Source of the DNA: Actinomycetota bacterium
Lineage (GTDB): Bacteria; Actinomycetota; CALGFH01; JBBAAN01
Assembly: GCA_041658225.1 (NCBI GenBank)
Contig: JBBAAN010000002.1
Coordinates: forward strand, 2,124-66,123
Direction of reading: 5' to 3'
Length of the DNA: 64,000 nucleotides
The notes beneath the pieces were generated by a model. That model was not told where the DNA came from, ran no database searches, and saw nothing but the letters and a program-made list of their open reading frames with translations. Shown here one piece after another: positions 9,969-56,569 of this stretch. A program made the translations under genes and the position numbers. The first letter of the stretch is position 1. Every line of letters starts with the position of its first letter.

Positions 9969-14745
<4,777 letters not shown>

Positions 14746-14749
<4 letters not shown>

Positions 14750-15960: not shown

Positions 15961-15969
15961 GCGCGCGAC

Positions 15970-16607: not shown

Positions 16608-16700
16608 CCGCCTTCGTCACCAGCGACCGGCGCGGAATGCCTCCACCTGGTGGTAGCACGTGCATTCCTTGCGCCACTCGACGACGGCGTAGCGATCGGC
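16608..16700. repeat. About 95-bp segment, roughly 95% identical to 18157-18250. It covers the 3' coding end plus stop of both substrate-binding protein paralogs.
   Basis: Direct comparison: cctccacctggtggtagcac(g/t)tgcattccttgcgccactcgacgacggcgtagcgatcggctccgtcatacttgcccttgcggta... present at both loci. Confidence 0.8.
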
Positions 16701-37000: not shown

Positions 37001-37050
37001 CTCGCGTCACCCCCGTTCATCACCATTCAGTCTCGACAGGTGCTCTCCCC

Positions 37051-38529: not shown

Positions 38530-39086
38530 CCCGAGTTCCTAAGCTGAATGGCCGAAGACAGCACGATGTCGGTCGCCGGATTGGTGAGTCCCAGCGGAAA
38601 CGTGATCGCGATCTGAGTGAGCGGCGACGTGCCCGGGGCCGTGGCCTGCGGCGTCTGGGCACCCGCGTAGTAGTAGCTGAAGATGTCGGGGCTCTTGAGC
38701 TTCGACACGATCTGGCGGCTCCCGCCGCCCGCGGTCCGGTAGAGCAGAGAGCCCGACACCGAGTAGACGACGCGCGTCACCTGGCCGTTCCTATACGTGT
38801 CGATGTCCAAGGACGATGCGGTCGACGGATGCACCTTGGCCGTCTGGCGGATCTCCTTGGTCATGGAGTCCATCGCCAGCCGCACCTGGTCGATGGCCTC
38901 GCCTCGCTGCTGCGAGAACGAGGAGGAGCGCATCACGCTCTCGAGCACGCCCAAAGTGGCGCCAATAATCACGGCCATAAGCGCGACCGTGATCATCAAC
39001 TCCACGACCGTGAAGCCACCCTCCGCTTCGCGCCGTCCAGCCAAGCTTCTGATTGCGGATCGTCTCCCGGGAGCAACTATCGACAT
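38526..39086 (-). CDS. Minor pilin / pseudopilin with a prepilin-type N-terminal cleavage-methylation domain. Copy 1.
   Basis: Leader ...RREAEGG|FTVVELMITVALMAVIIG; PilW/PilV-like size (186 aa); 4-nt overlap with downstream PilX-like gene. Confidence 0.7.
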   Translation of the reverse strand: MSIVAPGRRSAIRSLAGRREAEGGFTVVELMITVALMAVIIGATLGVLESVMRSSSFSQQRGEAIDQVRLAMDSMTKEIRQTAKVHPSTASSLDIDTYRNGQVTRVVYSVSGSLLYRTAGGGSRQIVSKLKSPDIFSYYYAGAQTPQATAPGTSPLTQIAITFPLGLTNPATDIVLSSAIQLRNSG

Positions 39087-39308
39087 CGAACACCACCCCC
39101 ATCTCTCAGGCCAAGTGTCGACAAGCCGAATCCCCGGGTGAATAGACCACCCGGGGGGTTCTGCTGCCCAGTGAATGGCCCGAATGGGGGTGGTTATCGG
39201 GCTGACGGCCCGGCGAGCAGGCGCTGCTCGCCCCCATCCTCGAACGCAAGAAACACTGCGGCTAACGGAGGGTGGCTGACCGATTCCTCGAGCGAGCCGA
39301 GTCGACGG

Positions 39309-40850
39309 TCAGGGCTTCAGTTCCTCCCAGGAGTACCTGACCAGGCTCACGTCTCCGAACCCGACCACGCGCTCGACGCGCGAGTCGTAGGTAACTTCGA
39401 AACCGTTCTTGACGTCCATGTTGCCGCCGTAGAGGGCGCCGTTGCCGCGGTTGGCGCTGTTCTTGAACGCCATCATCCCGGTCGTGTAGAAGAGGGTGGC
39501 CACGTCCGAGCTGATCTGGACCTTGTTCTTTCCCCAGATCGAGCAGTCGCCACCTTGGTCGCTGCAACTCATCTCCTGCCCGGGCGGCGCGTACAGGCTC
39601 ACGATCACCAGGAGTGGTTTGATCACTCCCGGTTGGGTCGACGTAATTGTGATGTTGTTGCCGTCGAAGTTGTTGCCGTCGAAGACGATCGGCGCGTTGG
39701 TCACGATCATGGTGTTCCCGGCCAGTGTCAGTTCCCCCGGCAACACCACCGGGGTGGATTGCGAGGTGTTGGACTGCCAGATCGCGTAGTTGCCGGAGAA
39801 CCCCGTCACATCGGCCTTGGTCAAGCCGTTGTCGCTGACGCTCTTGTCGACGTTGAAGCGGGCGGCCGCGTCGGGGGTGCCCCCCGTGTAGGGAGCGGGA
39901 GGCAGGGATCCGTAGGTGTGAGTATTCATGCCCGACTGGTACATCACACTGGGGCTGAAAACCGGCAGGCTCACCTTCGGCGGCTGCGAGGCGCAGGGGT
40001 CGTGCTTGTTCTGGACGTTCTTGGCCCCTTCGACCTTCACCGTGATCGAGCCTGAGGCGCGGGCGTCACCCTTCACCGTAGCCCCGCTGTTGCCGATGTC
40101 CGACCAGCCCCCGGCGGAGGTGCAGTCCGCCTCCCCGGCGGTTGCGTTACCCCCCACGACCACGTTGCCGGCCAGTACCTGGTCCCCGCCGCCCGAGGCG
40201 TCCCCGCCCGTCCAACTGTCTCGGGAGATCGTGACATTGTTACCTGCCGTGAGGTTGCCCCGGTAGACCATCACCGAGCCCTCGACCTTACAGCTGTTGG
40301 CAAGTGTCATGTTGTCCACCGAGTAGATGTCTCCGGTGACCACGCAGTTCGTGCTGCCGCCAACATCCAGAGTCGTATTGGAGAAGATCGCGTACTTGAA
40401 AGACGGAGGCGGCGCCAGCACCTCCCGGATCTTCCGGCCGACCATCCCGTAGGCCGTCTTGCTTCTGCCGCTGGCGACTAGGGTCTTCCAGCCAAGGTGT
40501 GGAGTGTCGTGGGTGACCGCCACACAGTAGGAACCGCCCGGCACAGCGATCCACTTGTTGGGATCTGAGTCACAAGGCTTGTTCGCCGGGGTCGTTCCGG
40601 GCCACGTCGGGTCCTGGTTGAGTTGGAACACGGCCTCGTTGAGGCCGGCTTCCGCGACCGCTAGAGCCTGGTTCCAGTGCACCTGCCGCACCGTGCTGGT
40701 GTGTAGGTGAGTGCCCGTGGCCAGGATCGTTGCCACCAGCAGGCTCAGGACGAACAGCACGATCACGGCCGTTATCACGGCTATGCCCCGCTCGTCCTCG
40801 TGCGCCCGCCGCACTCGCGCAGACAACCTGGTTGGAGCCATGGGACTCAC
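39309..40850 (-). CDS. PilX_N-domain pilus-associated protein, copy 2.
   Basis: N-terminus ERGIAVITAVIVLFVLSLLVATILA; about 65% identity with copy 1 at termini and a divergent central region. Confidence 0.55.
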   Translation of the reverse strand: MSPMAPTRLSARVRRAHEDERGIAVITAVIVLFVLSLLVATILATGTHLHTSTVRQVHWNQALAVAEAGLNEAVFQLNQDPTWPGTTPANKPCDSDPNKWIAVPGGSYCVAVTHDTPHLGWKTLVASGRSKTAYGMVGRKIREVLAPPPSFKYAIFSNTTLDVGGSTNCVVTGDIYSVDNMTLANSCKVEGSVMVYRGNLTAGNNVTISRDSWTGGDASGGGDQVLAGNVVVGGNATAGEADCTSAGGWSDIGNSGATVKGDARASGSITVKVEGAKNVQNKHDPCASQPPKVSLPVFSPSVMYQSGMNTHTYGSLPPAPYTGGTPDAAARFNVDKSVSDNGLTKADVTGFSGNYAIWQSNTSQSTPVVLPGELTLAGNTMIVTNAPIVFDGNNFDGNNITITSTQPGVIKPLLVIVSLYAPPGQEMSCSDQGGDCSIWGKNKVQISSDVATLFYTTGMMAFKNSANRGNGALYGGNMDVKNGFEVTYDSRVERVVGFGDVSLVRYSWEELKP

Positions 40851-41329
40851 CCCTGATTCCGAAGCTGGATGGCCGATGAGAGCACGATGTCGGTGGCCGG
40901 GTGCGTAAGCCCGAGAGGGAAGGTGATCATGATCTGCGTCAGCGGCGCGGTGCCGGGGGCCGTCGTCGCCGGGGTCTGAGAGCCGGCGTAGTAGTAGTTG
41001 AAGACATTGGGTGTCTTCAGGCGAGCGACCACCTGGCTGCTTCCGCTCCCCTGCGTCCGGTAGAGGATGTAGGGGGGAATGCTGCCTGACACCGAGTAGA
41101 CGACTTTCGTTGGCACACCGCCCACGTACGTATCGATGTCCAGGTTCGAAGCGGTGGACGGACGCACCATGGTGGTCTGGCGGATCTCCTTGGTCATGGA
41201 ATCCAGGGCAAGCCGCACCTGGTCCATGGCCTCCCCGCGCTGCTGAGAGAACGACGCGGAACTCATCACGTTCTCGAGCACGCTCAGGGTCGCGCCCACG
41301 ATAATCGCGAACAACGCGACGGTGATCAT
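40847..41329 (-). CDS. Minor pilin paralog, copy 2. The annotated ATG lies after the predicted cleavage site, so the class III leader has no canonical start codon upstream.
   Basis: In-frame upstream sequence encodes ...TRLREAEGG|FTVLELMIT, but an in-frame TGA lies 23 codons upstream of the ATG. No ATG/GTG/TTG occurs between them, and the FN3-2 stop (TAG) lies inside this stretch in another frame. Confidence 0.5.
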   Translation of the reverse strand: MITVALFAIIVGATLSVLENVMSSASFSQQRGEAMDQVRLALDSMTKEIRQTTMVRPSTASNLDIDTYVGGVPTKVVYSVSGSIPPYILYRTQGSGSSQVVARLKTPNVFNYYYAGSQTPATTAPGTAPLTQIMITFPLGLTHPATDIVLSSAIQLRNQG

Positions 41330-41369
41330 GAGCTCGAGAACGGTGAAACCGCCCTCGGCCTCGCGGAGT

Positions 41370-42599
41370 CTAGTCTTGGCCCTTTTGATTGAGTATCACC
41401 GCCGTCGTGGTATTCCCGGCCTTGTCGTAGGCCTCGACCATGAAGTCGTAGTAGCCACTCCCCGCCCCAGCGTCGTAGTAGCTGGTAGCCGTCGAAGGGT
41501 TCGAGCCGATCGGGCTGCCCCAATCAGTGATTCCGGACGCCCGGCGGTAAACCCGATACCCGCTCAGGTAGGTGTCCGACGAGGCGCTCCACGCGAGGGT
41601 CTTGCTCTGCTTGTTCCAGTTCAGACTACCCGGCGCGGTTGGCGCCTGCCGGTCCAGCACAATGCTGGCCTGGACGATCCCGCTCTCCCGCCAAGCCCCG
41701 TCTCGGTAGCGCGCATACACGGTCTTTTGTCCGTCCGAGCCCGAGAGTGTGTAGATCACCGACGGCGAGTAGGCCTGCCATGCCTTCCAGTCCGTCCCGT
41801 TGTCGGAGAACTGGACCTCGATGACCGGACAGGCATCGGTAGCACCGAGATGGAGAGTGACATCCGCGGACTTGGCAAAGCCGGTGGTGATGGCGAACGC
41901 AATCGAGGTGTTGGTGGGTGCGGCCGGCGGGTTCTCATCCAAACATACCGTCGGACTCCCCGAAGGAGTGGGCGAAGGACTAGCTGTGGCCGTCGGAGTC
42001 AAAGTCGGGACCTGTGTGGGAGCGAAGCTGGCGGGCGGGAACGACACCACCCCGGGAGTAAAGATCGAACTGAGCTTCGCATAGTCGGAGGTACCGCCCA
42101 CCTGCGGGCGTGCCCACCTTGCCACCACTGTCACGCGCTTGGCCGCCTCCGCCGTTCCGCTACCCCCCGGAGTCCCCTTCGAGGAACTCACCCACGTCAC
42201 GTACTGGTAGATCTCCATGGTGGAGTTAGCCTGCGCAACTGTCGTGGTGTGGTCGATCTGGCCTCCCACAATAAGCGGTTCGGCCCCGCCTCCCGCGTTG
42301 TAGGAGGCGACCGGCGTATCGGATACGTAGTAGTCGGGGGACTTCGGATCGGTGCTGTGGGTCGGCATGGACGTCAGGCCAATGGCCGAATAGGGCAAGT
42401 TCCGCGCGTACTCCAGGTACTTCTGGGCCATTCCACTTGCGCCGGTGCGCTGGCGTGCGTCGCCGAGCAGGCGGAGGCCAAGTCCGAGCGATCCGGCCAC
42501 GGCCAAGATGCCGACCGCCAGGATGAAGCCGGCAATGGCCACCTCGAGGATCGTCAGACCCTCGTCGCGCCGCAATGCACGGCCAAGCCGGCTCAGCAT
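41370..42599 (-). CDS. Prepilin-type FN3-domain protein, copy 2; start at MLSRLGRALRRDEG|LTILEV.
   Basis: Same architecture as 35780-37000: leader, S/T/P-rich linker and C-terminal FN3-like domain. Confidence 0.65.
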   Translation of the reverse strand: MLSRLGRALRRDEGLTILEVAIAGFILAVGILAVAGSLGLGLRLLGDARQRTGASGMAQKYLEYARNLPYSAIGLTSMPTHSTDPKSPDYYVSDTPVASYNAGGGAEPLIVGGQIDHTTTVAQANSTMEIYQYVTWVSSSKGTPGGSGTAEAAKRVTVVARWARPQVGGTSDYAKLSSIFTPGVVSFPPASFAPTQVPTLTPTATASPSPTPSGSPTVCLDENPPAAPTNTSIAFAITTGFAKSADVTLHLGATDACPVIEVQFSDNGTDWKAWQAYSPSVIYTLSGSDGQKTVYARYRDGAWRESGIVQASIVLDRQAPTAPGSLNWNKQSKTLAWSASSDTYLSGYRVYRRASGITDWGSPIGSNPSTATSYYDAGAGSGYYDFMVEAYDKAGNTTTAVILNQKGQD

Positions 42600-42652: not shown

Positions 42653-43708
42653 TCAAGAAGACCCTATCAGTTTAGGCCCCACCGGCCGGGCCGCACGGGT
42701 CCCCAGCAGCAGCCAGCGAAGTAGACGGAGGGCGGGTGCCCGGCGACGCACCAACCGGCGCTTGCGCCAAAGGCGAGGGAACAGCTTCATAGCGTCCGGG
42801 ATTGCCCTGAGCGTGGCGCGCTCGCGCAACGCGCAATAGGCAACGAGGGCCAACTCGCGAGCCAGGATGGCCGGGAGACTCGGCAGGAATGTCGCGAGGG
42901 TCTCGTTCTTGACGCCCACCAGGTAGCGGTTCCTGACGCCGATGCGCCGCACCCACTCTTGCGAGTGCTCCCTCGACTCCGGTCGGAACCTGCGGTTGTG
43001 GCGGCCGACCGCACCGGCGACGTACATTGCCCGCCACCCCGCGGACTTGGCCCGCCACGCCAGATCCACGTCTTCCCGGTAGCAGAACAGGTCCTCGTCC
43101 AAGACCTCGCCCGAACAAGCCACGTCCTCGAGCATCCTCCGTCGGTACAACCCGGCGGCGGCCGAGACCCCGAAAACCCACTCGTCGCGCGCGTACTGCC
43201 CGCGGTCCTCCTGCCCCGCGCCCCGGTCCAGCGCACGCCGATCGGCTCGCACGAAGAGTCCCGTGGAGTCAAAGATCGGCGTGGCCTCCAAAGCGCCCGC
43301 CCGAAGCAGCTTTCCCGTCAGCGAGCCCACCCGCCGCGCGGCGAGGCCCGCCCGCAGCAGTCTCTCCACGTAGTCCGGCTCGAGAACCACGTCGGGATTG
43401 ACCAGGAGAACCCACGGCGCCGTGCCCAGTGCCAGGCCCTGGTTCACCGCCGCCGCGAACCCCAGGTTGCCGGCATTGCGCAGCAGAGTTGCCTGCGGCC
43501 AGAGTCGCGAGATTATCTCCGCCGAGCCATCAACCGATCCGTTGTCGACACAAACAAGCGACACGGGAACGGTCTGAGCTCGAAGGCAGGCAAGGCACTC
43601 CGCAAGACTGGCCGCGCTGTTGAAGCTCACCACCAACGCATCCACGCTCGGCCATCCGCCAGTTCGGCTCTCACCTCCCGCCTGCCCGACCGACGGTGCT
43701 CGCATCAT
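42653..43708 (-). CDS. Family 2 glycosyltransferase.
   Basis: GT2 signature VVSFNSAASLAECLACL...VDNGSVDGS...LVNPD (DxD-type) in first 120 aa. Confidence 0.8.
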   Translation of the reverse strand: MMRAPSVGQAGGESRTGGWPSVDALVVSFNSAASLAECLACLRAQTVPVSLVCVDNGSVDGSAEIISRLWPQATLLRNAGNLGFAAAVNQGLALGTAPWVLLVNPDVVLEPDYVERLLRAGLAARRVGSLTGKLLRAGALEATPIFDSTGLFVRADRRALDRGAGQEDRGQYARDEWVFGVSAAAGLYRRRMLEDVACSGEVLDEDLFCYREDVDLAWRAKSAGWRAMYVAGAVGRHNRRFRPESREHSQEWVRRIGVRNRYLVGVKNETLATFLPSLPAILARELALVAYCALRERATLRAIPDAMKLFPRLWRKRRLVRRRAPALRLLRWLLLGTRAARPVGPKLIGSS

Positions 43709-46449
43709 TCCTCCGACGCCGCATAGGCCCGATCGGCAGCCCGAGAGGCCCCGGATGATTGCCCGTACCTGCCACCCTCCTGAGCCCCCGCCCCCTCTGA
43801 TATCCCCCAGCTATACAGCAACGCGTCCGCCTTTCTCAAGCGCCCGGCCGCCCACAAAGCCAGAGGGAAGAAGACCCCGAACAACCCGCCTCCGACCAGC
43901 GCCGCCAGTCCCGCTCCGATGCGGCCGGCCGGCGCCACAACGCCCGCCGCAAATCCCGCGGCCGCCCCTGCCAGCCCCCCCGCAAGCCCAGACGCCCAGA
44001 TCCTGGACATCTCAATACCCCTCGGGTACCCGAACGCCCGTCGGAACAACCCCAGGAACAGCGCTGCCCCAGCCACCAAGGCGACCGTCGGTCCCCAAGC
44101 CGCGCCGGCAATCCCGAACCGGCCAACCAGGAACACCGACAGTGGGACATTCACCGCGGCGATCAGCACCCCCACACGCGCCAGGAGACCGGGCTGGTTG
44201 AGACCCTGCGAAAACACCGCGAAAGTCCCGGTGGCTGCGTTGAGCGCAGCCCCCAAAGCCAGAATGCGAACGAGCGAGGCGGCCTGCGCCCCGTGCGCAC
44301 CAAGGGCCCCGCCCACCCATGCTCTGATTGCCTCGGGTGCCAGGATCGCGAGCAGGGCGAACGCCCCAGCGGCGACCCCAACCAAGAGCCGGGTCGCCCG
44401 GTCGAATAGACGACGCAGCGCCTCTTCCTCCCCCCTGCCGCGAAGGTCTGCCGCCGCGGGCATGACCCCCGCGATCAACAGCAACGTCAGATCCCTTAGC
44501 GCCTTCACGACTCGGGCTGCCACCTCATACCCAGCCAGAACGCCCAACCCCAGGAAGCGCGCGACGATGATGCGGTCGGCATAGGTCATCGCGAGCTCCG
44601 CCAGCACGCTCAGTTGCAGCTTGCCCCCGAAGCCGACCAGAGCCCCCAACTCCCCCGAAGACACTGAGCGCGCGCGGATCCTGACATCGGGGAACACACG
44701 CCGCAGCGCCAACCCGTTCAGACACGGGTTGATCAGGGCCCCCAGTACCGCGATAGCCGCAAGGGCGTAGAGGCCACCGCCGAGATGCAAAGCCATCAGG
44801 GTAGCCACAGTCTGAGGCACCATCAGCCGGATGCTGATCCGAGAGGTAACGTCCAGACGCTGCCGACCCACGAGTCCGGCCGCGTATACCCCTCCCACAC
44901 CGTTCAAGAAGAAGCTCGCCACGCCGGAGAGCAGCGCTGCCGCGGCCTCACCCTGCAGGTGGGCCGGCACCCGGAAAACGGACATGAACGCGGCGCGCCC
45001 CGCCCAACAAGCGGGGACAACCAACAGCAACAGCAGCACATAGATCGCCAGGCCCGTACTCAGGGTCCGGCTCATGGCGTGCCGATCCCCACGCGCATGG
45101 CCATCTGCCACCCTCTTCGCGAACGCGTTGGAAGCCCCGAGATCCAGCAACCCCAGATGCTGGGCCAGGATCCCCGTGAGCGACCAGACCGCGAACCGTG
45201 AAGTTCCCAGCCGGGAAAGGGCGTAGGGAACCACGATCAGCGCGGCGACCATTCCCGCCACTCGGGCTAGAGCATTCTCAAGAGTGTTGCGCGGGAGCCG
45301 CGCCAGCGAATCCAGCGAGCCGGGCCTGGCCGTCGCGTGGCACATTTCTTCGAACTGCGCCGTTGCCGCCTGCCAACCGTAGTGCTCCGAGACCCGCCCG
45401 GCGGCCAGGTTACCCAGCCGCTCTCGCCGCTGCGGATCCGCGAGCAATCCAGAGAGGGTGCCGGCCAATCCTGAAGCCCCATCCGCCAGCCGGAAAATGA
45501 CCGCCGTCCCTCCAACGACCTCCAAGTTCGGGACGTGATCACTGGCCAGCACGGCCCGGTGAGCGGCCATCGCCTCCAAGAGCACTGGATGGGTTCCCCC
45601 GACTTCGGTGGGGACCACAAACACCGCGGCGTGGCTGGCCAGTTCCCGGAATCCCTTGCCGAACAGATAGCCCGCGAAGACCACCTCCGGGCCGGCGAGC
45701 TCACGCAAACGAGACTGGTACTCCCGGGCATAGGGGGCGTCACCAACTATGACCAGCCGCATCCCGGCGTCCCGCTCCACCTGCCGCCAGGCCTCGAGTA
45801 GCAGGTGCGCGTTGTTCTCCGGTACCAGCCGCCCTACGAATAGCACGTACTTGCCGGCTTCCAGGCCCAATCTGGCGAGCGTCTCCGTGCCCGGTTCAGC
45901 GATCGGGTCCACCCCGTAGCGCACGACCGCGGGACGCTTGCCGAAGCGGCGGCTCATCTCCTCGGCCACCGCGACGGAATCGGTGACGCACAGGTTGGGG
46001 GCAAACACCGAGATTCGCTCCGCGAAGCGCAGATACCGCCGCGCTAGCCGCCCCCACTTCTCCCGCCTGGAATCCGCCCCATCCACATTGAGGATCGTCC
46101 GCAATCCCAGAAGCCTCGCCAACAGGACGATCGGCGCATTGCCGGCGGTGGCGTACACGGCCACATCGGGCCGGGGCCTCAGGCGGAAAGCTGCATGCAG
46201 GGTGGAGAGCAGGGTGTGCAGGAATGTCTCGAGATGCTTGCTGTGCAATACCGGCAACCGGACCAGACGGACTCCTCGGTACTGTGAAGGCCCTTTCCCT
46301 CCCCGACAGTAGACCGTGACCTCGTGGCCCTCCGCCGCCAGGCGGGTCGCGAACCCCTCGACGGCCGTCTCGACGCCCGAGTAGGAGGCAGGGATACCGC
46401 GGCTTCCCAGGAACGCGACCCGCAGCCGCAGGTCGGTTTGCCCATCCAT
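43705..46449 (-). CDS. Fusion protein: an N-terminal GT4-family glycosyltransferase joined to a C-terminal Wzx-like (MOP superfamily) polytopic flippase domain.
   Basis: N-terminal half has GT4 features (VAFLGSRGIPASYSGVETAVEGFA, C-terminal EX7E-like region VFVVPTEVGGTHPVLLEAMA). C-terminal half has about 12 hydrophobic helices with Wzx-like N-region LSRLGTSRFAVWSLTGILAQHLGLLDLG. Confidence 0.7.
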   Translation of the reverse strand: MDGQTDLRLRVAFLGSRGIPASYSGVETAVEGFATRLAAEGHEVTVYCRGGKGPSQYRGVRLVRLPVLHSKHLETFLHTLLSTLHAAFRLRPRPDVAVYATAGNAPIVLLARLLGLRTILNVDGADSRREKWGRLARRYLRFAERISVFAPNLCVTDSVAVAEEMSRRFGKRPAVVRYGVDPIAEPGTETLARLGLEAGKYVLFVGRLVPENNAHLLLEAWRQVERDAGMRLVIVGDAPYAREYQSRLRELAGPEVVFAGYLFGKGFRELASHAAVFVVPTEVGGTHPVLLEAMAAHRAVLASDHVPNLEVVGGTAVIFRLADGASGLAGTLSGLLADPQRRERLGNLAAGRVSEHYGWQAATAQFEEMCHATARPGSLDSLARLPRNTLENALARVAGMVAALIVVPYALSRLGTSRFAVWSLTGILAQHLGLLDLGASNAFAKRVADGHARGDRHAMSRTLSTGLAIYVLLLLLVVPACWAGRAAFMSVFRVPAHLQGEAAAALLSGVASFFLNGVGGVYAAGLVGRQRLDVTSRISIRLMVPQTVATLMALHLGGGLYALAAIAVLGALINPCLNGLALRRVFPDVRIRARSVSSGELGALVGFGGKLQLSVLAELAMTYADRIIVARFLGLGVLAGYEVAARVVKALRDLTLLLIAGVMPAAADLRGRGEEEALRRLFDRATRLLVGVAAGAFALLAILAPEAIRAWVGGALGAHGAQAASLVRILALGAALNAATGTFAVFSQGLNQPGLLARVGVLIAAVNVPLSVFLVGRFGIAGAAWGPTVALVAGAALFLGLFRRAFGYPRGIEMSRIWASGLAGGLAGAAAGFAAGVVAPAGRIGAGLAALVGGGLFGVFFPLALWAAGRLRKADALLYSWGISEGAGAQEGGRYGQSSGASRAADRAYAASEE

Positions 46450-46451
46450 CG

Positions 46452-47924
46452 CTACACCGCGCCGCGCCGGCTGAGAACGGCGGGAAGTGTGCGGGCCAAG
46501 ATCGCGAGATCGAGCAGCGGTGACCAGTTCTCGACGTAGAGCACGTCCAGGCGCATCGACTCTCCGAAGGACAGGTCGCTGCGCCCGCTCACTTGCCATA
46601 GCCCGGTCATCCCGGGCACCGCTCGCAGACGACGCAGCTCCAACTCGTCATAGTGAGCCACTTCGGACAGTGGCATGGGCCGAGGGCCTACCAGGCTCAT
46701 GTCTCCCTTCAGAACATTGAGCAGTTGGGGTAGTTCATCGAGGCTGGACCGCCGCAGAAACTCGCCGACCCTGGTGACCCGAGGGTCCGAAGCCACTTTG
46801 AACCTCGGCCCATCCGCCCCGTTCAGCTCCGCAAGACCCGCCTCCATCTCCTCGGCGCCGAGCACCATCGTCCGGAATTTCCAAACGCGGAAGCCTTTCC
46901 CGAACCGGCCGACTCGCCAGTGGCGAAAGAGCACCGGGCGGCCCCCATCGGCGAGCACGGCCACCGCAATCGCCAGGAACACCGGCGCTAGCACCACTAA
47001 CCCTACAGTGGCCAGAATCAGGTCGAGTGCCCGCTTCGCGAGAGCCTTGGGCCCCGACAACCGCACCTCCCCCACGTCCAGCAAGGGCATGTCGCCGATC
47101 GACGCCACGACGAGCCTCGAGGTCAGGACATCGGCCAGGGCGGGCGCAACCAACACGCGAACACCGGTGCCCTCCAGCGTTCGAAGCACGCCCGCCACGG
47201 TCTCGCTGGAAGCCGCGCCGGAGGACACGACAACGGCGTCGGGCCGCAACCGCTCCGCCTTTACAGCCAGATCCCCCACCGGCCCCAGCACTGCTCCCTG
47301 CCCCCAGATCACGCACCCGACGGGGGTTTGGTCGTCCATGAACCCGACAACCTGGTACCCCCCGGCCTCCCGCCGCTCCAGGCGTTCCGCAAGGACCCGA
47401 GCACCCGAGTCCGCTCCGACGATCAGGACCCGGCCGGACACAATCCCTTCGACCCTCAACCGGGCCAGCCAGCGCCCGACCACCACGCGCCATCCAGTCA
47501 GCAGGAGAAAGGTCGCGATCCCGCCCAACACGGGCCAGGTTCGTGCCGGCTGCATCTTGAGGAAGAACGCCAATCCGGTGGTACCCACCATCGCGACCAG
47601 CACCGCGTGGAACACATCTCGCACTGCCAGCAAGCGAAGGAGCAGGCGCCTGGGCTCGTAGAGCCGGTAGGCGGCCAGCGCGAGCAGGCTCAATCCCACC
47701 CCCGCCCCCAGCAGCACAACGTAGTTGGCGTCCTCCGGCCGGTAGCCGACCAAGTTGGGCAGCGGCAGCAGCCCGGTGCGGAATCTGAGCAAGTAGGCGA
47801 AGCCCAGGCCGGTCAGAACGCACAGAGCATCTCCCGCGAGCACGAAGATCCAGACGCAGCGCATCAGCCCGCGTTCAGGTATCGGCTCTCCGCCGCGACG
47901 AAGCCTTCGCAGCAATGCGGTCAC
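46452..47924 (-). CDS. Undecaprenyl-phosphate sugar phosphotransferase, the WbaP/CpsE-like initiating enzyme of glycan assembly.
   Basis: N-terminal TM bundle and C-terminal bacterial sugar transferase domain with DELPQLLNVLKGDMSLVGPRP motif. Confidence 0.85.
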   Translation of the reverse strand: MTALLRRLRRGGEPIPERGLMRCVWIFVLAGDALCVLTGLGFAYLLRFRTGLLPLPNLVGYRPEDANYVVLLGAGVGLSLLALAAYRLYEPRRLLLRLLAVRDVFHAVLVAMVGTTGLAFFLKMQPARTWPVLGGIATFLLLTGWRVVVGRWLARLRVEGIVSGRVLIVGADSGARVLAERLERREAGGYQVVGFMDDQTPVGCVIWGQGAVLGPVGDLAVKAERLRPDAVVVSSGAASSETVAGVLRTLEGTGVRVLVAPALADVLTSRLVVASIGDMPLLDVGEVRLSGPKALAKRALDLILATVGLVVLAPVFLAIAVAVLADGGRPVLFRHWRVGRFGKGFRVWKFRTMVLGAEEMEAGLAELNGADGPRFKVASDPRVTRVGEFLRRSSLDELPQLLNVLKGDMSLVGPRPMPLSEVAHYDELELRRLRAVPGMTGLWQVSGRSDLSFGESMRLDVLYVENWSPLLDLAILARTLPAVLSRRGAV

Positions 47925-47935
47925 TGTAGTCCCCT

Positions 47936-47953
47936 GGGGTTGGAGTCAACCCC
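47936..47953. promoter_or_regulatory. Perfect 7-bp inverted repeat GGGGTTG-gagt-CAACCCC in the divergent intergenic region, 12 bp upstream of the sugar-transferase start codon.
   Basis: Seen directly; could be an operator or a 5'-UTR hairpin; function unknown. Confidence 0.3.
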
Positions 47954-48116
47954 GTATCGGCACGAACTGAGAGCCAATTGAGCACCCGGGTTCCAGCCCG
48001 CCCTGCCCAGCACCACGTTCGTGCTATGTTTCGCTCGGGCCGGCTGCACCGCCAGACGCGCGTGGTCCAGCTGGCAACGGCCCGAATCCAAGATACCCTT
48101 GCCGCCGAGGCGCTGA

Positions 48117-49979
48117 GTGTCGATTCCGCTGAGAATCCGCCGCATCCGCCTTCTCATCGAGGCCAGCAGCCGGGTCTGGACCGACGAGGGACCCGGCAGC
48201 TTCGCCGCGAAAACGGCCAGGCGCATGGCGCGCTCCCTCCTGGCGGGTGAGCCCCTGGCCAGGCCCCCCGAGCTTGTCGTGGCCGCTTCCGAGTACCGGA
48301 ACTGGCTGGAGACGGCAGTCCGCGCCAGAAACTCGAGGCAGGCTGGGAACCCGCCGCAGCAGCCTGCATACCAACCGCTGGTAAGCGTCCTCACCCCTGT
48401 CTACGACGTGGACGAAGCATGGCTGCGAAGAGCCATCGAGTCCGTCATCATGCAGAGCTACCCGAACTGGGAACTCTGCTTGGTCGACGACGCCTCCAGG
48501 AAACCCCACGTGCGCCGCGTGCTCTCCGAGTACGCCGCTGCCAACGAGCGGATCAAGGTCCGATTCCTGAGATCCAACTCGGGCATCTCTGAAGCCTCCA
48601 ACCGAGCCCTCGAGCTTGCCGAAGGGGAGTTCGTGGCCTTGCTCGACCACGACGACGAGCTCACTCCCGACGCGCTGCTCGAAGTGACGCGGCGTCTGGA
48701 GCGGGATCCCAGCCTTGATCTTGTTTACACGGACGAGGACAAGTACGCGAGGGGCGGTGCTCTCCCCGTCGAGCCATTCTTCAAGCCGGACTGGTCTCCC
48801 GACCTACTCCGGTCGATGAACTACATCACTCACCTGAGCGTCTTCCGCCGGAGCCTGGTCGAGGACATGGGCGGCTTCAGGGCTGGACTGGAGGGGAGCC
48901 AGGACTACGATCTACTCTTGCGCTTCACCGAACGGACGAACCGCATAGCGCATGTGCCCAAGGTCTGCTACCACTGGCGCAAGATAGCCGGATCGGCAGC
49001 CGTGTCCTCCGACAGCAAGCCCTACGCCTACCGGGCAGCGGAGCGGGCGCTCAGCGACGCACTTCGCCGCCAGGGCCGCGAGGGCAAGACCCGCATGATC
49101 GCCCCCGGCCGCTACCGGGTGCAGTATGCCATCGCGGGGACTCCTCCGGTGTCCTTCGTGGTCGCGGCCCGTGGCGGCAACCGTGCAATGGCCAAGTCTC
49201 TCGCAGCAATGGCCTCCAAGACCGCATATCGCAACATCGAGCTGATCGTTGTGGGGGCCCCGGACTGGCAAGAAATCGCGAGGAGGCTTCCCGAGTCGGG
49301 CCTGGCCATTCGACACGCTCCCGGACGTCCGGGGGCGGGATGGGCGACCACCTGCAACTTGGCGGCGTCGAGCGCACGCGGCCAGTACCTGCTCTTCCTG
49401 GATGGCCTCACGCGACCTCTGAACCCCCAGTGGTTGGAGGCCCTACTCGAGCATGCCCAGCGTGAGGAGGTCGGCGCTGTGGGTTCCACTCTCGTGCGCC
49501 GTAATGGCTACATCTCTCAGGCTGGCGTCGTGCTGTGTGCCGGTGGCGCCGCCCGCTACGCCTATCGCGATCTCGACGCCGGCTCACCCGGCTATGTCGG
49601 TCTCGCGCACGCCGTGCGCGACTGCAGTGCCGTGACGGGAGCGAGCATGATGATCCGGGCCGACCTCTTTCTGGACGTCGGAGGATTCGACGAGCACCTT
49701 GTGCCGCCATGGGCGGAGGTCGACCTGTGTTTGCGCCTCAGACACCACGGCTACCAAGTCGTCTGCACACCCTTCTCGCGGCTCCTGCAGCATCGGGGTG
49801 CCACTCGGCGAGCCCTACCATCCAATCGCTCCGCCGCGCTTGTCGTCAAACGGTGGGGCGAAGTAATCGCCGACGGCGATCCTTACTTCAGTCCCAATCT
49901 GGTGCCCGAGTTCGATATCGTTCGCCTTCGGGTTCCATCGAGCGACATGGCCGGACGAAAGGGGAGCGACTTTGCCTGA
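48117..49979 (+). CDS. Dual-domain glycosyltransferase with two tandem GT2 modules; divergent from the minus-strand glycan genes.
   Basis: Two regions with GT2 signatures, VSVLTPVYDV...LVDDAS...LDHDD and VSFVVAARGGN...LFLDGL. Confidence 0.75.
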   Translation: MSIPLRIRRIRLLIEASSRVWTDEGPGSFAAKTARRMARSLLAGEPLARPPELVVAASEYRNWLETAVRARNSRQAGNPPQQPAYQPLVSVLTPVYDVDEAWLRRAIESVIMQSYPNWELCLVDDASRKPHVRRVLSEYAAANERIKVRFLRSNSGISEASNRALELAEGEFVALLDHDDELTPDALLEVTRRLERDPSLDLVYTDEDKYARGGALPVEPFFKPDWSPDLLRSMNYITHLSVFRRSLVEDMGGFRAGLEGSQDYDLLLRFTERTNRIAHVPKVCYHWRKIAGSAAVSSDSKPYAYRAAERALSDALRRQGREGKTRMIAPGRYRVQYAIAGTPPVSFVVAARGGNRAMAKSLAAMASKTAYRNIELIVVGAPDWQEIARRLPESGLAIRHAPGRPGAGWATTCNLAASSARGQYLLFLDGLTRPLNPQWLEALLEHAQREEVGAVGSTLVRRNGYISQAGVVLCAGGAARYAYRDLDAGSPGYVGLAHAVRDCSAVTGASMMIRADLFLDVGGFDEHLVPPWAEVDLCLRLRHHGYQVVCTPFSRLLQHRGATRRALPSNRSAALVVKRWGEVIADGDPYFSPNLVPEFDIVRLRVPSSDMAGRKGSDFA

Positions 49980-50712
49980 GGTCTATGATGCCTTCTACTA
50001 CGCTACGTCCTGCGGCCGCCCCTACCGGCGAGACGAGGAGTGGCTAGCGTTCTTCGGCCGTATGGCGGATCGAATCATTCAGGACTTGAACCCCCGCACC
50101 GTGATGGATGCCGGCTGTGCTCACGGTTTCCTGGTCGAGGCCCTGCGGGACCGGGGGGTGGAGGCTTACGGCGTCGATGCGTCCGCTTACGCGATAGGGC
50201 AGGTCCGGCCGGACGTATCCCAGTACTGCACGATCGGTTCGCTTCTGGGACCTTTCCCGCAGACCTACGACTTGATCGTGTGCATCGAGGTAGTCGAGCA
50301 CCTTGCCGCAGCTCAGGCACACGACGCGATCGGCAATCTGTGCCGGCATGCCGACGACATTCTCTTCTCCTCCACCCCGGACGACTACACCGAGCCCACC
50401 CATCTCAACGTTCGTCCCGTCGAGCACTGGGCGGAGCACTTCGCACGCAACGGGTTCTTTCGGGACCTCGACTTCGACACGGAGTTCATAGCTCCGCAAG
50501 CAATGCGCTTCCGGAGATCGTCCGACCCGGCCCATCGCATGGTTGCGAACTACGAGAGGAAGCTTTGGTCGCAGACCAGGGAGACCGCCGCGCTACGCAG
50601 GCAGGTCATCGAGATGAAGAACCAGCTGTCTGCCGCCTGGCACCCTCAGCCCGACATGCCGTTGGGATGGATGCGCCGTGTGCGAACGCGCCACAAGGGT
50701 GGGACCACCTAG
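49972..50712 (+). CDS. Class I SAM-dependent methyltransferase; TTG start at 49972 or a downstream start.
   Basis: Rossmann-like motif VMDAGCAHGFLVEALRDRGVEAYGVDAS...LIVCIEVVEHL. Confidence 0.6.
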   Translation: MPEVYDAFYYATSCGRPYRRDEEWLAFFGRMADRIIQDLNPRTVMDAGCAHGFLVEALRDRGVEAYGVDASAYAIGQVRPDVSQYCTIGSLLGPFPQTYDLIVCIEVVEHLAAAQAHDAIGNLCRHADDILFSSTPDDYTEPTHLNVRPVEHWAEHFARNGFFRDLDFDTEFIAPQAMRFRRSSDPAHRMVANYERKLWSQTRETAALRRQVIEMKNQLSAAWHPQPDMPLGWMRRVRTRHKGGTT

Positions 50713-50853: not shown

Positions 50854-51369
50854 CTAGGATCGAGACCAGGAGTCGCCCCAAGCCGGGTCGGACGGATCCG
50901 GCACGGCGCACGAAGCGCCCGCGGGCACGGTGCGGTCATAGTAGGTGCCAGTCAAGCTGCCCGCCATGGTGTCCTTAATGTAGAAGCAGCGCCCCATCGA
51001 GGTTCTGCCCACCAGCACCACAGTCTGAGCCGTGCTTGGGATGTTGAACACCTTCAGGTAGATGGCCCGCGCTGATGAGCTGCCATCCAGAGCAGTTGTC
51101 GTCCAGGCCAGAGACGGCTCCACCTTCGACATCTCCGCCGAGTCCTCAGTGTATGCGGACCACTCGCCGTAGTAGATCCGACTCGCCGTGAACGCATTGC
51201 GCACGTTGGCTTGGGTAGCACGGTCGGCTGCCTGCCGGCGAGCCCCCAGGTAGGTCGGGATGGCGATCGCGATAAGGATGGCGATGATGAGTACGACCAC
51301 CATCAGTTCGATGAGGGTGAAGCCCTCGTGCCGCTTGGTGTGAGAGCCGAGGTTTCGCATGAACCCCAT
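50854..51369 (-). CDS. pilA: Type IVa major pilin, copy 1.
   Basis: Class III signal peptide ...TKRHEG|FTLIELMVVVLIIAILIAIAIPTYLGARRQ. Confidence 0.8.
   Translation of the reverse strand: MGFMRNLGSHTKRHEGFTLIELMVVVLIIAILIAIAIPTYLGARRQAADRATQANVRNAFTASRIYYGEWSAYTEDSAEMSKVEPSLAWTTTALDGSSSARAIYLKVFNIPSTAQTVVLVGRTSMGRCFYIKDTMAGSLTGTYYDRTVPAGASCAVPDPSDPAWGDSWSRS
51242..51321. repeat. 80-bp segment (1 mismatch) shared by pilA copy 1 and pilA copy 2 (52062-52141), covering the conserved alpha-1 N-terminal helix.
   Basis: Sequence ggtcgggatggcgatcgcgataaggatggcgatgatgagtacgaccaccatcagttcgatgagggtgaa is identical at both loci. Flanking 3' coding parts are unrelated at nucleotide level. Confidence 0.85.
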
Positions 51370-51714: not shown

Positions 51715-52182
51715 CTACCACTTGTCGGCGCCAGTGCCGGCACAGCTGGGAACCTTGAAGTACAGGGTACCCGCGCCAGTGCCGATAGACGTGTCCTTGA
51801 TCGAGAAGTTCGTGCCCGACATGCTGTGCGCGGTGAGACACACAACAGCGCTGTCGCCGAGGACCACGTCCGACACCTCCATCAAAACCTCACGCCGAGC
51901 GTCTGGAGTCCCGCTGTTCAGCCACGTCAGGGAAGGCTCAATGCCCTGCATCGACGCGGTGTCCTCCGTGAACACCTCGTTGTCCGTGTAGTACACCTTC
52001 TCCGCCGTCAGGCCGTTGCGGAGATCGGACTGAGCTGCACGGTCCTGCGCGCGCTTTCGGGCCCCCAGGAAGGTCGGGATGGCGATCGCGATAAGGATGG
52101 CGATGATGAGTACGACCACCATCAGTTCGATGAGGGTGAATCCCTCTTCCTTCTTGGTCATGCTTTCACGAAGTTTGATCAT
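51715..52182 (-). CDS. pilA: Type IVa major pilin, copy 2, with a strong RBS.
   Basis: Leader ...MTKKEEG|FTLIELMVVVLIIAILIAIAIPTFLGARKR; AAGGAGG 12 nt upstream of ATG; intrinsic terminator 20 nt after stop. Confidence 0.8.
   Translation of the reverse strand: MIKLRESMTKKEEGFTLIELMVVVLIIAILIAIAIPTFLGARKRAQDRAAQSDLRNGLTAEKVYYTDNEVFTEDTASMQGIEPSLTWLNSGTPDARREVLMEVSDVVLGDSAVVCLTAHSMSGTNFSIKDTSIGTGAGTLYFKVPSCAGTGADKW
52062..52141. repeat. Second copy of the 80-bp pilA N-terminal identical segment.
   Basis: See 51242-51321. Confidence 0.85.
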
Positions 52183-52387
52183 AATGTTTGTTCACCTCCT
52201 TTCCCGATCAGAGTCAACACGTACACCTGCGACACGTTTCTTGCGGGAGCCGGACCGAGTGGCCCGACAACCCGCCAGACGCGCCATCGCCCAGTTTCCT
52301 CCTTCGGGCAGCGCAGGTACATGACTTCCTGAATCCGACTATCGGTCCCAGAGCGCAATACCTTTAGCCCAATTTCACCCGAAGTGA

Positions 52388-53629
52388 CTAGGCATCTCGG
52401 GCCGTTTCCCACGCCGGGTCTGTCGGTCTGGCGCTCGCCCACAGTGCCCCCGCCGGCGATCCCAGCAGCACCGCCAGCAGCGCGGGCAGTGCCGGGTAGT
52501 GCCAGTCGAAGTCGAAGCCGGCGTGCGCGAGCAGCACTCCGGCGCCCACCACAAGCCCCGACTCCATTCCCGGGAACCCCTTCCGTACCAGGCGCCACGC
52601 AACGAGCGCGCCGGCAGCCAGCACTCCCACAGCAGCCAAAGCCAGAGGGGTCCCCCCTTCGGCCGCGGCCTGCAGATACTCGTTGTGGGCATACCGGCTC
52701 TTGATCGGCCCGTGCTGGTAGGGCGCGGCTGCCTTGCCGTAGAGGCCCAGTCCGACTCCCAAGACGGGGTGATCGGCGAACACCTCTCCTGCCGCGCGCC
52801 ACCAGTCCAACCGGCCGAAAGCACTGGAGCCGGCGTCGTTGCCGCGCACCGCCAGACCCTGCGGACGGTCGGAGGGCGTCGACTTCTTGGCCAGTGCGAG
52901 CGCCCCCAGTCCGAGCAGGCCCACCAGCGCGACGACCAGCAGTTTGCGCGCCCACCCGCGCCCGATGGCCACCGCGGCAGCCACTCCGCCAACCACCGCC
53001 AGAGCCAGGCTGGCCCTCGACCCGGACAGGTAGGTCGCCGCGAGTAGTGCGCCCGCGGTCACACCGGCAAGCACCCGGCCGCGACCCGGCTGGGAAACCG
53101 CCCATGCTGTCCAGAGCACCACGCCCACCGCAACGAAGATCCCAAACTGGTTGCGCCAGTAGAAGTGACCGGTCATGAACCCGCCTCCGCCGCCACCTCC
53201 CCCACCCCACCAGGTGTACCAGGCCCAAGCGGCCTCCCAGACGATCGCGAGGCCCGCGACCGCGGCTAACAGCCGCGCCCTGCCTCGCCCAGCCTCCACG
53301 AGCGCGGCGACCCCCAGACCGGGAAGCGCCGCGAACACCCTCCACGAAAGCAGGGCCTCCTCTCCCCTTCCCGGGATGAGCGCAAGGCTGGCAGCCAGCG
53401 CTGCCGCCCCCCAGAGCAGCACCGCGAACCGGCCTGCCCGCGAGCGCCACGCTGGGATCAGCGACACGAGGCCAGCCAGAGCAGCCAGGATTGCCGCACA
53501 GGTCAGTGTCCAGCCGCCGCGCCCACCCCAATCGGAAGGCAGCACGAAGAGCGCGTAGGCGAAAGCCACCCACCGAAGACCCGTAGCCACGGGCTGGGCC
53601 GCCGAGAGCCCGGAAGCGCTTGGGGTCAC
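52388..53629 (-). CDS. Wzy_C / O-antigen ligase family polytopic membrane protein. Candidate pilin O-oligosaccharyltransferase (TfpO/PglL-like).
   Basis: About 12 TM helices; periplasmic-loop motif RYAHNEYLQAAAEGG matches the HNxYLxxxxExG signature of the O-antigen ligase family. The gene is translationally coupled (ATGA) to pilC and precedes pilA. Confidence 0.65.
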   Translation of the reverse strand: MTPSASGLSAAQPVATGLRWVAFAYALFVLPSDWGGRGGWTLTCAAILAALAGLVSLIPAWRSRAGRFAVLLWGAAALAASLALIPGRGEEALLSWRVFAALPGLGVAALVEAGRGRARLLAAVAGLAIVWEAAWAWYTWWGGGGGGGGGFMTGHFYWRNQFGIFVAVGVVLWTAWAVSQPGRGRVLAGVTAGALLAATYLSGSRASLALAVVGGVAAAVAIGRGWARKLLVVALVGLLGLGALALAKKSTPSDRPQGLAVRGNDAGSSAFGRLDWWRAAGEVFADHPVLGVGLGLYGKAAAPYQHGPIKSRYAHNEYLQAAAEGGTPLALAAVGVLAAGALVAWRLVRKGFPGMESGLVVGAGVLLAHAGFDFDWHYPALPALLAVLLGSPAGALWASARPTDPAWETARDA

Positions 53630-54843
53630 TGAATCAGCTTGATGATGTTGAACATCGGCAGGTACAGGGAAACGACCATCCCTCCCACCGCGCCGCCCAT
53701 GACCGCGATGAGCAACGGCTCGATCAACGACGTGAGGCTATCAACGGCCGCCGAGACCTCAGCGTCGTAGAAGTCGGCGATCTTGGACAGCATCGTGTCC
53801 AGGGCCCCCGTCTCCTCTCCCACCGCCATCATCTGCACGACCATCGGCGGGAACACCGGGTGCGCCTCGAGCGGCTTGGACAGACTCTCGCCGTGGCGCA
53901 CCGCCTCCTGGACGTCCTTGACCGCCTTGGCCACCACACCGTTGCCCACCGTATCGGCCACGATGTCCAGGCCCTGCAGGATCGGGACGCCGGACTTCAG
54001 CAGCGTGGAGAGGGTGCGCGAGAACCGCGACAGCGCGGTCTTCTGGAACAGCGAGCCGAAGACCGGCATCTTGAGCTTCATGACGTCCAGGGCGTACCGG
54101 CCTTTGGGTGTAGCCTTCCACCGGCGAAGCGCGAAACCGGTCCCGATGGCACCGCCGAGGACCAGCCACCAGAACTTCTTGAAGATGTCGCTCATCCCGA
54201 CGAGCACCCGCGTGGGCAGCGGCAACGTGCCGCCCAGGGTCGAGTAGAGGCTCTGGAACATCGGCACGACGAAGAGCAGCATCGCCGACAGGATCATGAT
54301 CACCATGCCGAACACGGCGACCGGGTAGGTCATCGCCGACTTGATCTTGCCCCGAAGTTCCACTTCCTTCTCGATGGTGTCGGCCAGACGCACCAAGACC
54401 TGGTCGAGGAAACCGCCGATTTCCCCCGCCTTGACCATCGCCACGTAGAGGTTGCTGAAGGCCTTGGGGTGCTTGCGCATCGCCTCCGAGAGGCTGGTTC
54501 CCTTCTCCACGTCGGTGCGCACCAGGCGCACGATCTCCGCCAGTTTGGGGTTCTCGGTCTGGTCCCCCAGGATCGAAAGGGCCCTCAGCAACGACAGGCC
54601 CGAGTTGATCATCGTGGCGAACTGACGCGAGAAGACCGCCACGTCCTTGAGCTTAATCCGGTTGCGGCCCGGAAGGTGCAGTTCCCTCTTGGCCGCGCCG
54701 GCCTTGACCGCCTCGATCGTCAGCGGCGCATATCCCAGCTCGCGAAGACGCAGGGCAACCGCGGACTGGGAGTCCGCCTCTACCGTGCCCGAGACCAGCT
54801 TGCCCTGCCGGTCACGCACCTTGTAGGCGAATGTCTCCGCCAT
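53626..54843 (-). CDS. pilC: Type IV pilus platform protein PilC (GspF family).
   Basis: Duplicated GspF domains; 405 aa; synteny pilB-pilT-pilC. Confidence 0.9.
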   Translation of the reverse strand: MAETFAYKVRDRQGKLVSGTVEADSQSAVALRLRELGYAPLTIEAVKAGAAKRELHLPGRNRIKLKDVAVFSRQFATMINSGLSLLRALSILGDQTENPKLAEIVRLVRTDVEKGTSLSEAMRKHPKAFSNLYVAMVKAGEIGGFLDQVLVRLADTIEKEVELRGKIKSAMTYPVAVFGMVIMILSAMLLFVVPMFQSLYSTLGGTLPLPTRVLVGMSDIFKKFWWLVLGGAIGTGFALRRWKATPKGRYALDVMKLKMPVFGSLFQKTALSRFSRTLSTLLKSGVPILQGLDIVADTVGNGVVAKAVKDVQEAVRHGESLSKPLEAHPVFPPMVVQMMAVGEETGALDTMLSKIADFYDAEVSAAVDSLTSLIEPLLIAVMGGAVGGMVVSLYLPMFNIIKLIQ

Positions 54844-54846
54844 GAC

Positions 54847-56481: not shown

Positions 56482-56569
56482 GTCCACCTCCCCACGCACC
56501 CGACAATACTCCGCCGAGGACGTCAAAGTGCCTATTCGGACCCCGGCCTCAAGGCCTTGAGCCTTCTCA

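Follow-up and report, generated by a model that had tools for sequence, protein, structure and literature searches.

What does a glycosyltransferase joined to a lipid-linked sugar flippase do inside a type IV pilus locus? The question is raised by a 64,000-nucleotide stretch of DNA from an uncultured member of the Actinomycetota (positions 2,124 to 66,123 of contig JBBAAN010000002.1; hereafter the window), in which one open reading frame (ORF) encodes a GT4-family glycosyltransferase (GT) followed by a Wzx-type flippase. The fusion gene (GT4::Wzx) stands among glycan-assembly genes, between a group of minor-pilin-like ORFs and two type IV pilin genes. Our preferred answer, to which we assign a probability of about one half, is that these genes form a dedicated, TfpO-like pilin O-glycosylation system, which would make an oligosaccharide linked to undecaprenyl phosphate (Und-P) within an Acidimicrobiia-like pilus locus.

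Glycan-assembly genes of the island

The gene preceding the fusion gene on the minus strand (46452..47924) encodes a WbaP/WcaJ-like large polyprenyl-phosphate glycosyl-1-phosphate transferase (PGT) of 490 residues. The protein has the layout of large PGTs, with N-terminal transmembrane segments, a CoA_binding_3 domain (PF13727, 52 bits) and a Bac_transf catalytic domain (PF02397, 213 bits, E 2e-63). It passed the NCBIfam model TIGR03025 (392 bits, cut-off 296) and scored below the WbaP and WcaJ equivalog cut-offs of the same collection. The fusion ORF begins 2 nt past the PGT stop codon, and at its other end its stop overlaps by 4 nt the start of a minus-strand gene for a 351-residue GT2 glycosyltransferase (42653..43708; PF00535, E 2.8e-19, and PF13641). 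Divergent from the PGT gene, the plus strand encodes a two-domain GT2 glycosyltransferase of 620 residues (48117..49979; PF00535/PF13641 stretches at 90-251 and 343-555). The end of this gene is overlapped by 8 nt by that of a class I S-adenosylmethionine (SAM) methyltransferase of 246 residues (49972..50712, plus strand; PF13489, PF08242, PF08241).

These Pfam and NCBIfam assignments bear out the domains given to all five genes at 42653-50712 in a preliminary description of the sequence. Its view of the locus as a self-contained toolkit for a Wzx-type pathway also stands: a priming enzyme, four GT domains, a methyltransferase and a flippase are present, together with a Wzy_C protein encoded beyond the pilin genes. 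Among the Pfam-annotated gene calls, which span roughly 23.4-64 kb of the window, there was no gene for a polysaccharide co-polymerase (PCP/Wzz), tyrosine kinase, LCP ligase, export protein or nucleotide-sugar synthesis; genes for PCP and LCP could sit elsewhere in the genome. Because no chain-length machinery accompanies the island, a short glycan would be expected.

The Wzy_C protein and the pilins

The Wzy_C gene (52388..53569, minus strand) lies between pilC and the pilin genes. It encodes a polytopic membrane protein of 393 residues, or of 413 if translation starts from a GTG at 53629; this GTG overlaps the pilC stop codon, and the gene may be translationally coupled to pilC. The PF04932 match (67 bits, gathering score 31.7) includes an AHNEY motif. 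The protein matched no NCBIfam equivalog and no PglL_A domain in Pfam, and a sequence search of the PDB returned nothing relevant. The Wzy_C proteins TfpO and TfpM, 420-470 residues long, are encoded beside pilins and glycosylate a C-terminal Ser/Thr (PMC9829042). The Wzy_C protein of the window is a candidate for the same function, that of a pilin O-oligosaccharyltransferase (OTase), or else for that of a Wzy polymerase.

Two type IV pilins are encoded next to it on the minus strand. The first, pil171 (50854..51369; 171 residues; PF07963 and PilA-type NCBIfam matches), bears, behind a Cys-Cys loop, a tail of 17 residues with a C-terminal Ser (...SCAVPDPSDPAWGDSWSRS; ends ...DSWSRS), and is a candidate glycan acceptor. 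The second, pil155 (51715..52182; 155 residues), is 51% identical to pil171 and ends ...GADKW, without a C-terminal Ser/Thr. When the loci of distant Wzy_C relatives were inspected, pilin genes were found within 6 kb in 9 of 80, that is, in 9 of the ~29 loci of at least 7 kb.

A 5′ segment of 89 nt (51239-51327 and 52058-52146) is 96.6% identical between the two pilin genes, against 51% identity of the proteins overall. Gene conversion or a strong constraint on the N-terminal helix could account for it.

Related pilus loci

The platform protein PilC (53626..54843, minus strand; T2SSF Pfam matches) served as query for fetching related pilus loci (n = 80), and the PilC relatives place the host among Acidimicrobiia-like metagenome-assembled genomes (MAGs). 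The usual order in these loci is pilB-pilC-pilA-pilD, with one to three copies of pilA. None of the 80 had the Wzy_C, GT4, Wzx, dual GT2 or methyltransferase genes, and the island is thus a lineage-specific cargo of the pilus locus. The GC content at third codon positions is 0.77-0.80 in the glycan genes (42653-50712), 0.88-0.91 in the core pil genes (53626-58255) and 0.82-0.90 in the housekeeping neighbors, which fits an acquired or faster-evolving cargo.

In related Acidimicrobiia, polytopic membrane proteins of other kinds occupy the slot between pilC and pilA; in L024 this is a GT87 (GT-C) protein (11241-12467). Three further loci (L012, 11252-12274; L021, 11229-12461; L022, 17490-18731) share a conserved slot protein of ~410 residues, with ~67% mutual identity, an HYEDV motif and no Pfam match. 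The slot proteins may be alternative pilin-modifying enzymes, and the use of the slot resembles that of the tfpO/tfpW slot in Pseudomonas.

Pilin glycosylation or surface polysaccharide

The island could instead make a Wzx/Wzy-dependent surface polysaccharide, either an exopolysaccharide (EPS) or a cell-wall glycopolymer, with the Wzy_C protein as polymerase of the repeat units. We regard this as the main rival, a real but distinctly less probable explanation. The position in the pilus locus would then reflect insertion into a variable hot spot or a functional coupling between pili and EPS, and the pilC-pilA interval of the relatives does take many unrelated insertions, including kinases and transport genes. 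A study of Myxococcus (PMC7484181) describes a Wzx/Wzy EPS pathway that is functionally linked to type IV pili. Two-domain GT2 enzymes often build polymers. The Wzy_C domain occurs in many Wzy polymerases and ligases, and alone cannot tell an OTase from a polymerase. A classic Wzx/Wzy cluster for EPS (L085) combines a Wzy_C gene with another GT4::Wzx fusion, P0300, and with GT4 and methyltransferase genes and a Wzz-GNVR-kinase protein.

That last component is where the two loci part, since the calls from ~23.4-64 kb of the window contain no counterpart of the PCP-kinase of L085, nor LCP or export genes. Moreover, the two pilin genes stand between the Wzy_C gene, which is perhaps coupled to pilC, and the rest of the glycan genes, and one of the pilins has the Ser tail typical of TfpO/TfpM substrates. 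Other features weigh against pilin glycosylation: at 393-413 residues the Wzy_C protein is shorter than TfpO/TfpM, its gene lies upstream of the pilin genes and not downstream, the C-terminal Ser is found in only one of the two pilins, and our literature search yielded no Actinomycetota precedent for pilin O-glycosylation. The preliminary description had assigned the transfer step to the Wzy_C gene next to pilA. With a Ser-ending pilin, pilin-adjacent Wzy_C relatives and no PCP/LCP genes this is plausible, but the evidence does not separate an OTase from a polymerase.

A general, PglL-like O-glycosylation of many envelope proteins, of which the pilin would be one substrate, is improbable, since for all that the Wzy_C domain is shared with general OTases, that only one pilin ends in Ser and that no TfpO-specific model was matched, the protein lacks a PglL_A match, is much smaller than PglL/PglS (520-600 residues) and is encoded by a gene tightly set between pilC and the pilins.

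Reading frame and junction of the fusion

The flippase of the island is part of the fusion protein (MFA5785534.1; 43705..46449, minus strand). The ORF, previously put at 915 residues, consists of 914 codons plus the stop in a single uninterrupted frame. Pfam matches covered both parts, with PF13439/PF13579 at residues 24-182 and PF00534/PF13692 at residues 198-348 in the GT4 part, and PF01943 at 387-664, PF13440 at 511-713 and MatE at 613-772 in the Wzx/PST part; all were above the gathering scores. A longer ORF of 964 residues, starting from an ATG at 46599, was rejected, since 148 nt of it would lie within the PGT gene and all gene calls take the start of the 914-residue protein.

The two parts meet at 45283..45345 (minus strand), slightly higher than the region of 44.9-45.3 kb first indicated. 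The junction sequence (...QFEEMCHATARPGSLDSLARLPRNT...), which runs from QFEEM369 over CHATARPG and SLDSLARLP to RNT, contains neither a stop nor a frameshift in the assembled DNA. Alignment with stand-alone relatives showed that GT4 proteins end 7-10 residues past the YExL motif (FEEM in the fusion), and that Wzx proteins start 8-20 residues ahead of the RNT motif. At the junction a native GT4 C-terminus therefore meets a native Wzx N-terminus with essentially no linker, and the predicted model has a helix, four residues and a second helix at this place. Since the natural termini are joined in this manner, the fusion probably arose when the boundary separating two adjoining genes was lost.

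The DNA of the fusion was 100% identical in the NCBI MAG, in an ENA MEGAHIT contig (75.7 kb) and in a Logan contig (11.7 kb). This agreement excludes an artefact specific to one assembler. As a caution against our reading, one read set probably underlies all three assemblies, which are then not independent samples.

We also considered whether the fusion might be meaningless, that is, a consensus error, a stop codon lost recently or in a minor part of the population, or an ORF in which translation restarts at the in-frame ATG of M369 to yield a stand-alone Wzx whose N-terminal tail is of normal length. The protein is a singleton, the identical assemblies probably derive from one data set, there is no linker, and M369 lies 18 residues before RNT, where stand-alone proteins start (17-19 residues in P0121 and P0122). 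We nevertheless think this unlikely. M369 was rejected as a vestigial wzx start, as this residue stands at the conserved YExL position in the C-terminal helix of the GT4 half, and no Shine-Dalgarno-like sequence was found upstream of its ATG. Three different assemblers concur, and no frameshift is needed or seen to place the two domains ~10 residues apart in one frame. Finally, GT::Wzx fusions persist as multiple variants in two other lineages, and hence are viable.

Other glycosyltransferase-flippase fusions

The window fusion (P0001) was a singleton in a collection of 5.8 billion clusters. A word-indexed protein search retrieved the identical protein only, and a scan of metagenome contigs with the junction and the Wzx half found no relative. 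In the protein search the Wzx half had no relative above 34% identity. That the protein is a singleton, with no close relative carrying its particular fusion and with the nearest Wzx 34% identical, must be counted as a point against our reading, and any selection for the fused state in this lineage is hypothetical.

More distant fusions were detected. When 1.84 billion representatives were searched exhaustively with HMMER, a protein of 930 residues (P0197) matched both halves of the fusion at 26% identity; by Pfam it is a GT4::Wzx protein. Its cluster has five members, of 830 or 930 residues, from different sources. P0300, of the same family, is the sole flippase seen within the 22.5 kb examined around it in L085. 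A search with the Wzx half found P0129, a GT2::Wzx protein by Pfam, whose cluster comprises eight full-length variants of 857 residues from Gaiellaceae. Judged from these sequences, GT::Wzx fusions are rare but recurrent, and the architecture is not unique. Separate origins are suggested, because P0197 has another GT4 subtype and linker length than the window fusion, and in P0129 the GT domain is a GT2.

A full-text literature search found no characterised GT-flippase fusion, and a sequence search of the PDB with the fusion gave generic GT4 matches only. The fusion had been noted as unfamiliar from characterised systems, and had been recommended for a search in related genomes. The first statement holds for characterised proteins but not for the architecture as such, given the P0197 and P0129 families; the search, in turn, revealed other GT::Wzx families but no close counterpart of the window's own fusion.

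In L085 (JGI 3300035660) the interval 12514-17660 contains genes for three B12-binding/SPASM radical SAM enzymes and two methyltransferases among the GT4 genes, an unusual content for a glycan cluster.

The GT4 half

Residues 1 to ~376 (45322..46449, minus strand) form a GT-B enzyme of the DUF1972, GacB/WchF-like type (PF13439, PF13579, PF00534, PF13692, PF09314). The AlphaFold2 (AF2) model, built with 39 relatives, had a mean predicted local distance difference test score (pLDDT) of 91 and a complete GT-B fold, with template modeling (TM) scores of ~0.8 to BshA, MshA and PglA. All 44 columns that are invariant in 40 relatives are retained (44/44), including GxRGIPxxYxGxET and GGTHPxLLE. The half carries GSRGIPASYSGVET and VGGTHPVLLEAM, and its GGTHPVLLE matches the GGTNPxLLE motif of GacB/WchF. 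Its close relatives carry DUF1972 names. The top NCBIfam match was Cps2T (WchF; NF046071) in a full-length alignment; its score of 89 bits, where the cut-off is 500, does not allow the GT4 half to be filed as a Cps2T orthologue.

GacB and WchF add beta-1,4-L-rhamnose to GlcNAc- or Glc-PP-Und, which is the first committed step. Their DUF1972 domain was proposed to bind the lipid-PP-sugar, and the GGTNPxLLE motif is common to both (PMC6802508). Among relatives with 38-48% identity to the GT4 half there are fusions with RmlD (P0184), a Bac_transf PGT (P0080, P0120), WecG/TagA (P0040) and Wzy_C (P0018, P0263). The RmlD fusion provides Rosetta-stone support for the use of dTDP-rhamnose in the DUF1972-type GT4 family. 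On the strength of the kinship with GacB/WchF, of the PGT-fused relatives and of the position of the gene directly after the PGT gene, we favor a role for the GT4 half early in assembly, in addition of the second sugar, which is possibly rhamnose. The same grounds make it unlikely that, as suggested earlier, the fusion links the final sugar addition to translocation. A caveat to our assignment is that the Cps2T score is far below the cut-off, that the DUF1972 match is partial (PF09314, 36 bits, gathering score 25, profile positions 119-184 only), and that the window contains no rml genes; the choice of rhamnose, and even that of the second step, would hold at the level of the family only.

DUF1972-type GT4 domains are frequent fusion partners. 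NTP_transf_5 and a second GT4 were also among the partners (P0155 among the relatives).

The Wzx half

Residues 378-914 (43705..45318, minus strand) matched PF01943 (44 bits, gathering score 28), PF13440 (45 bits, gathering score 23) and MatE (32 bits, gathering score 25). In the full-length AF2 model the pLDDT was 80-95 over residues 380-880, with ~14 helices. Foldseek gave target-normalised TM scores of 0.85 to MurJ (6nc6), 0.76 to WzxE (9g9n) and 0.78 to a MATE protein (6fhz) over 430-510 aligned columns. The model thus indicates a complete, two-lobed MOP fold with ~14 helices. The preliminary description was right in calling this half Wzx-like, and its refuting case of a C-terminal half outside the MOP family does not hold; its figure of about 12 transmembrane helices is too low for the model, which agrees with MurJ in this respect. 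By Pfam and AF2 the GT4 and Wzx halves are both intact. Because the number of helices is even, the MOP topology would put the N-terminus of the Wzx half on the cytoplasmic side, in accord with a GT4 domain located there.

The full-length fusion was modelled with Wzx relatives only and the GT4 half was modelled apart, as MAFFT alignments that mixed GT4-only and Wzx-only relatives put Wzx sequences onto the GT4 half. Since these mixed alignments failed and there was no co-evolution signal between the halves, modelling gave no confident geometry of the two domains relative to each other.

Other features of the locus

The window has a GC content of ~67%. On the minus strand the order starts with pilB, a second T2SSE ATPase gene, pilC, the Wzy_C gene, pilin-155 and pilin-171. 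These are followed by the plus-strand genes of the dual GT2 and the methyltransferase, by the minus-strand genes of the PGT, GT4::Wzx and GT2, and then by six minor-pilin-like ORFs, pilD, a helix-turn-helix (HTH) gene and pilMNO. The whole pilus and glycan cluster sits within an aroE...aroCKBQ-efp-nusB housekeeping region.

The six minor-pilin-like ORFs (35780..42599, minus strand) have pilin-like N-termini and no Pfam match. They represent a three-gene set that was duplicated and rearranged, with pairwise identities of 57-74% (amino acid identities of 57% for mp409 and mp406, 74% for mp155 and mp186, and 70% for mp510 and mp489). The segments 37053-38267 and 39311-40552 share 74.6% nucleotide identity. 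The duplicated minor pilins, together with the two major pilins, suggest two alternative pilus or tip sets.

Two T2SSE-family ATPase genes stand in tandem upstream of pilC (54847-56634 and 56570-58255, minus strand), of which only the first has an MshEN domain. The HTH gene (34440-34658), located between pilD and pilM, is a small gene of the HTH_17 type. An ORF of 87 residues in the gap between the Wzy_C gene and pilin-155 (52179-52442, minus strand) is probably no gene, given its overlap with the 3′ end of the Wzy_C gene, its implausible composition and the lack of any family match. A scan of 42-54 kb for promoters and terminators gave no signal exceeding shuffled expectation.

Proposed pathway and its significance

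A pathway can be proposed from these domains, in which the catalytic activities, the sugars, the acceptor and the benefit of the fusion are all putative. The WbaP-like PGT would place a sugar-1-phosphate on Und-P. The GT4 domain of the fusion would then add a second sugar, possibly rhamnose, to the Und-PP-sugar in the committed step. The GT2 and the two-domain GT2 enzymes would lengthen the chain to about five sugars, and the methyltransferase would cap or modify the glycan. The completed lipid-linked glycan would be flipped by the Wzx domain and moved en bloc to a pilin by the Wzy_C protein, the likeliest site being the C-terminal Ser of pil171, as in TfpO/TfpM systems.

In this pathway the fusion, made by joining two adjacent genes end to start, may act as a tether or scaffold. 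The C-terminal helix of the GT4 domain would pack on the acceptor-binding DUF1972 domain, as is general to GT-B enzymes. Since only four residues separate this helix from the Wzx helix, the DUF1972 domain may be held at the membrane, beside the N-lobe and first helix of the flippase. The early, committed transfer, and probably the remaining GTs as well, would thereby be localised at the flippase, with no gate at the last step.

The wider question addressed by the fusion is how Wzx obtains complete, cognate Und-PP-glycans, and whether cytoplasmic GTs dock on it. A GT4::Wzx protein almost free of linker would mean that both activities can operate within ångströms of each other, to which the fusions in two other lineages lend support. 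Such a protein would be tractable for cryo-electron microscopy or for comparison of fused and split forms. It is a tentative proposal, and one we would not bet on, that the locus is the first island dedicated to O-glycosylation of type IV pilins in the monoderm Actinomycetota, with a fusion that tethers the GT of the committed step to Wzx. Were it so, the protein would be direct evidence of glycan-assembly enzymes in physical complex with a flippase and a ready-made construct for the structure of that complex. A compact island of eight genes, which unites the glycan genes with an OTase candidate and the acceptor pilin, would then bring pilin O-glycosylation to this phylum and could serve as a portable cassette for glyco-engineering. 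If the product is an ordinary surface polysaccharide instead, the fusion alone stays notable.

Comparison with known systems

The Wzy_C protein is likened to TfpO/TfpM from its domain and gene context. In both cases the gene of a Wzy_C membrane protein lies beside pilin genes, and pil171, like the substrates of TfpO/TfpM, has a C-terminal Ser tail past a disulfide loop. The hosts differ, Actinomycetota here and Proteobacteria there. So does the source of the glycan: the window has a dedicated and co-located pathway, whereas TfpO/TfpM borrow O-antigen or capsule units.

With GacB and WchF (Cps2T) the GT4 half shares the GT-B fold, a DUF1972 match, the GGT(N/H)PxLLE motif and a gene position right after the priming transferase; WchF also feeds a Wzx/Wzy pathway. 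In contrast to these enzymes, the window GT4 is covalently joined to a flippase, falls short of the Cps2T model (89 versus 500 bits) and has no rml genes nearby. The Wzx half resembles Wzx/PST flippases (WzxE, 9g9n; MurJ, 5t77 and 6nc6) in its PF01943/PF13440 matches, in a fold that superposes (TM 0.76-0.85) and in having PGT and GT genes as neighbors. Unlike a stand-alone Wzx, of which the closest is only ~34% identical, the protein adds a complete cytoplasmic GT4 enzyme at the N-terminus, and it has ~14 helices in the model, similar to MurJ, where WzxE has 12.

The P0197/P0300 and P0129 proteins share with the window fusion a cytoplasmic GT placed N-terminal to a MOP flippase. P0300 belongs to a polysaccharide cluster, and the contig of P0129 carries glycosyltransferase, sugar-epimerase and Wzz-like genes; the window fusion lies in a pilus locus. 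P0197 has a GT4 that is not of the DUF1972 type and a linker of ~35 residues, as opposed to the DUF1972 type and near-zero linker found here.

Two known proteins are conceptual analogues. Mycobacterium tuberculosis MviN/MurJ is a MOP flippase with extra fused cytoplasmic domains. MprF, a lysyl-phosphatidylglycerol synthase with a flippase domain of its own, unites in one covalent chain a lipid-modifying enzyme and the domain for translocation of its product. Both analogues are unlike the window fusion in fold, substrate and domain order, and neither has homology to the GT4 half. MOP flippases with an N-terminal GT were thus already known, as uncharacterised proteins; new in the locus described here is a DUF1972-type GT4 joined to Wzx by a near-zero linker within a type IV pilus locus.

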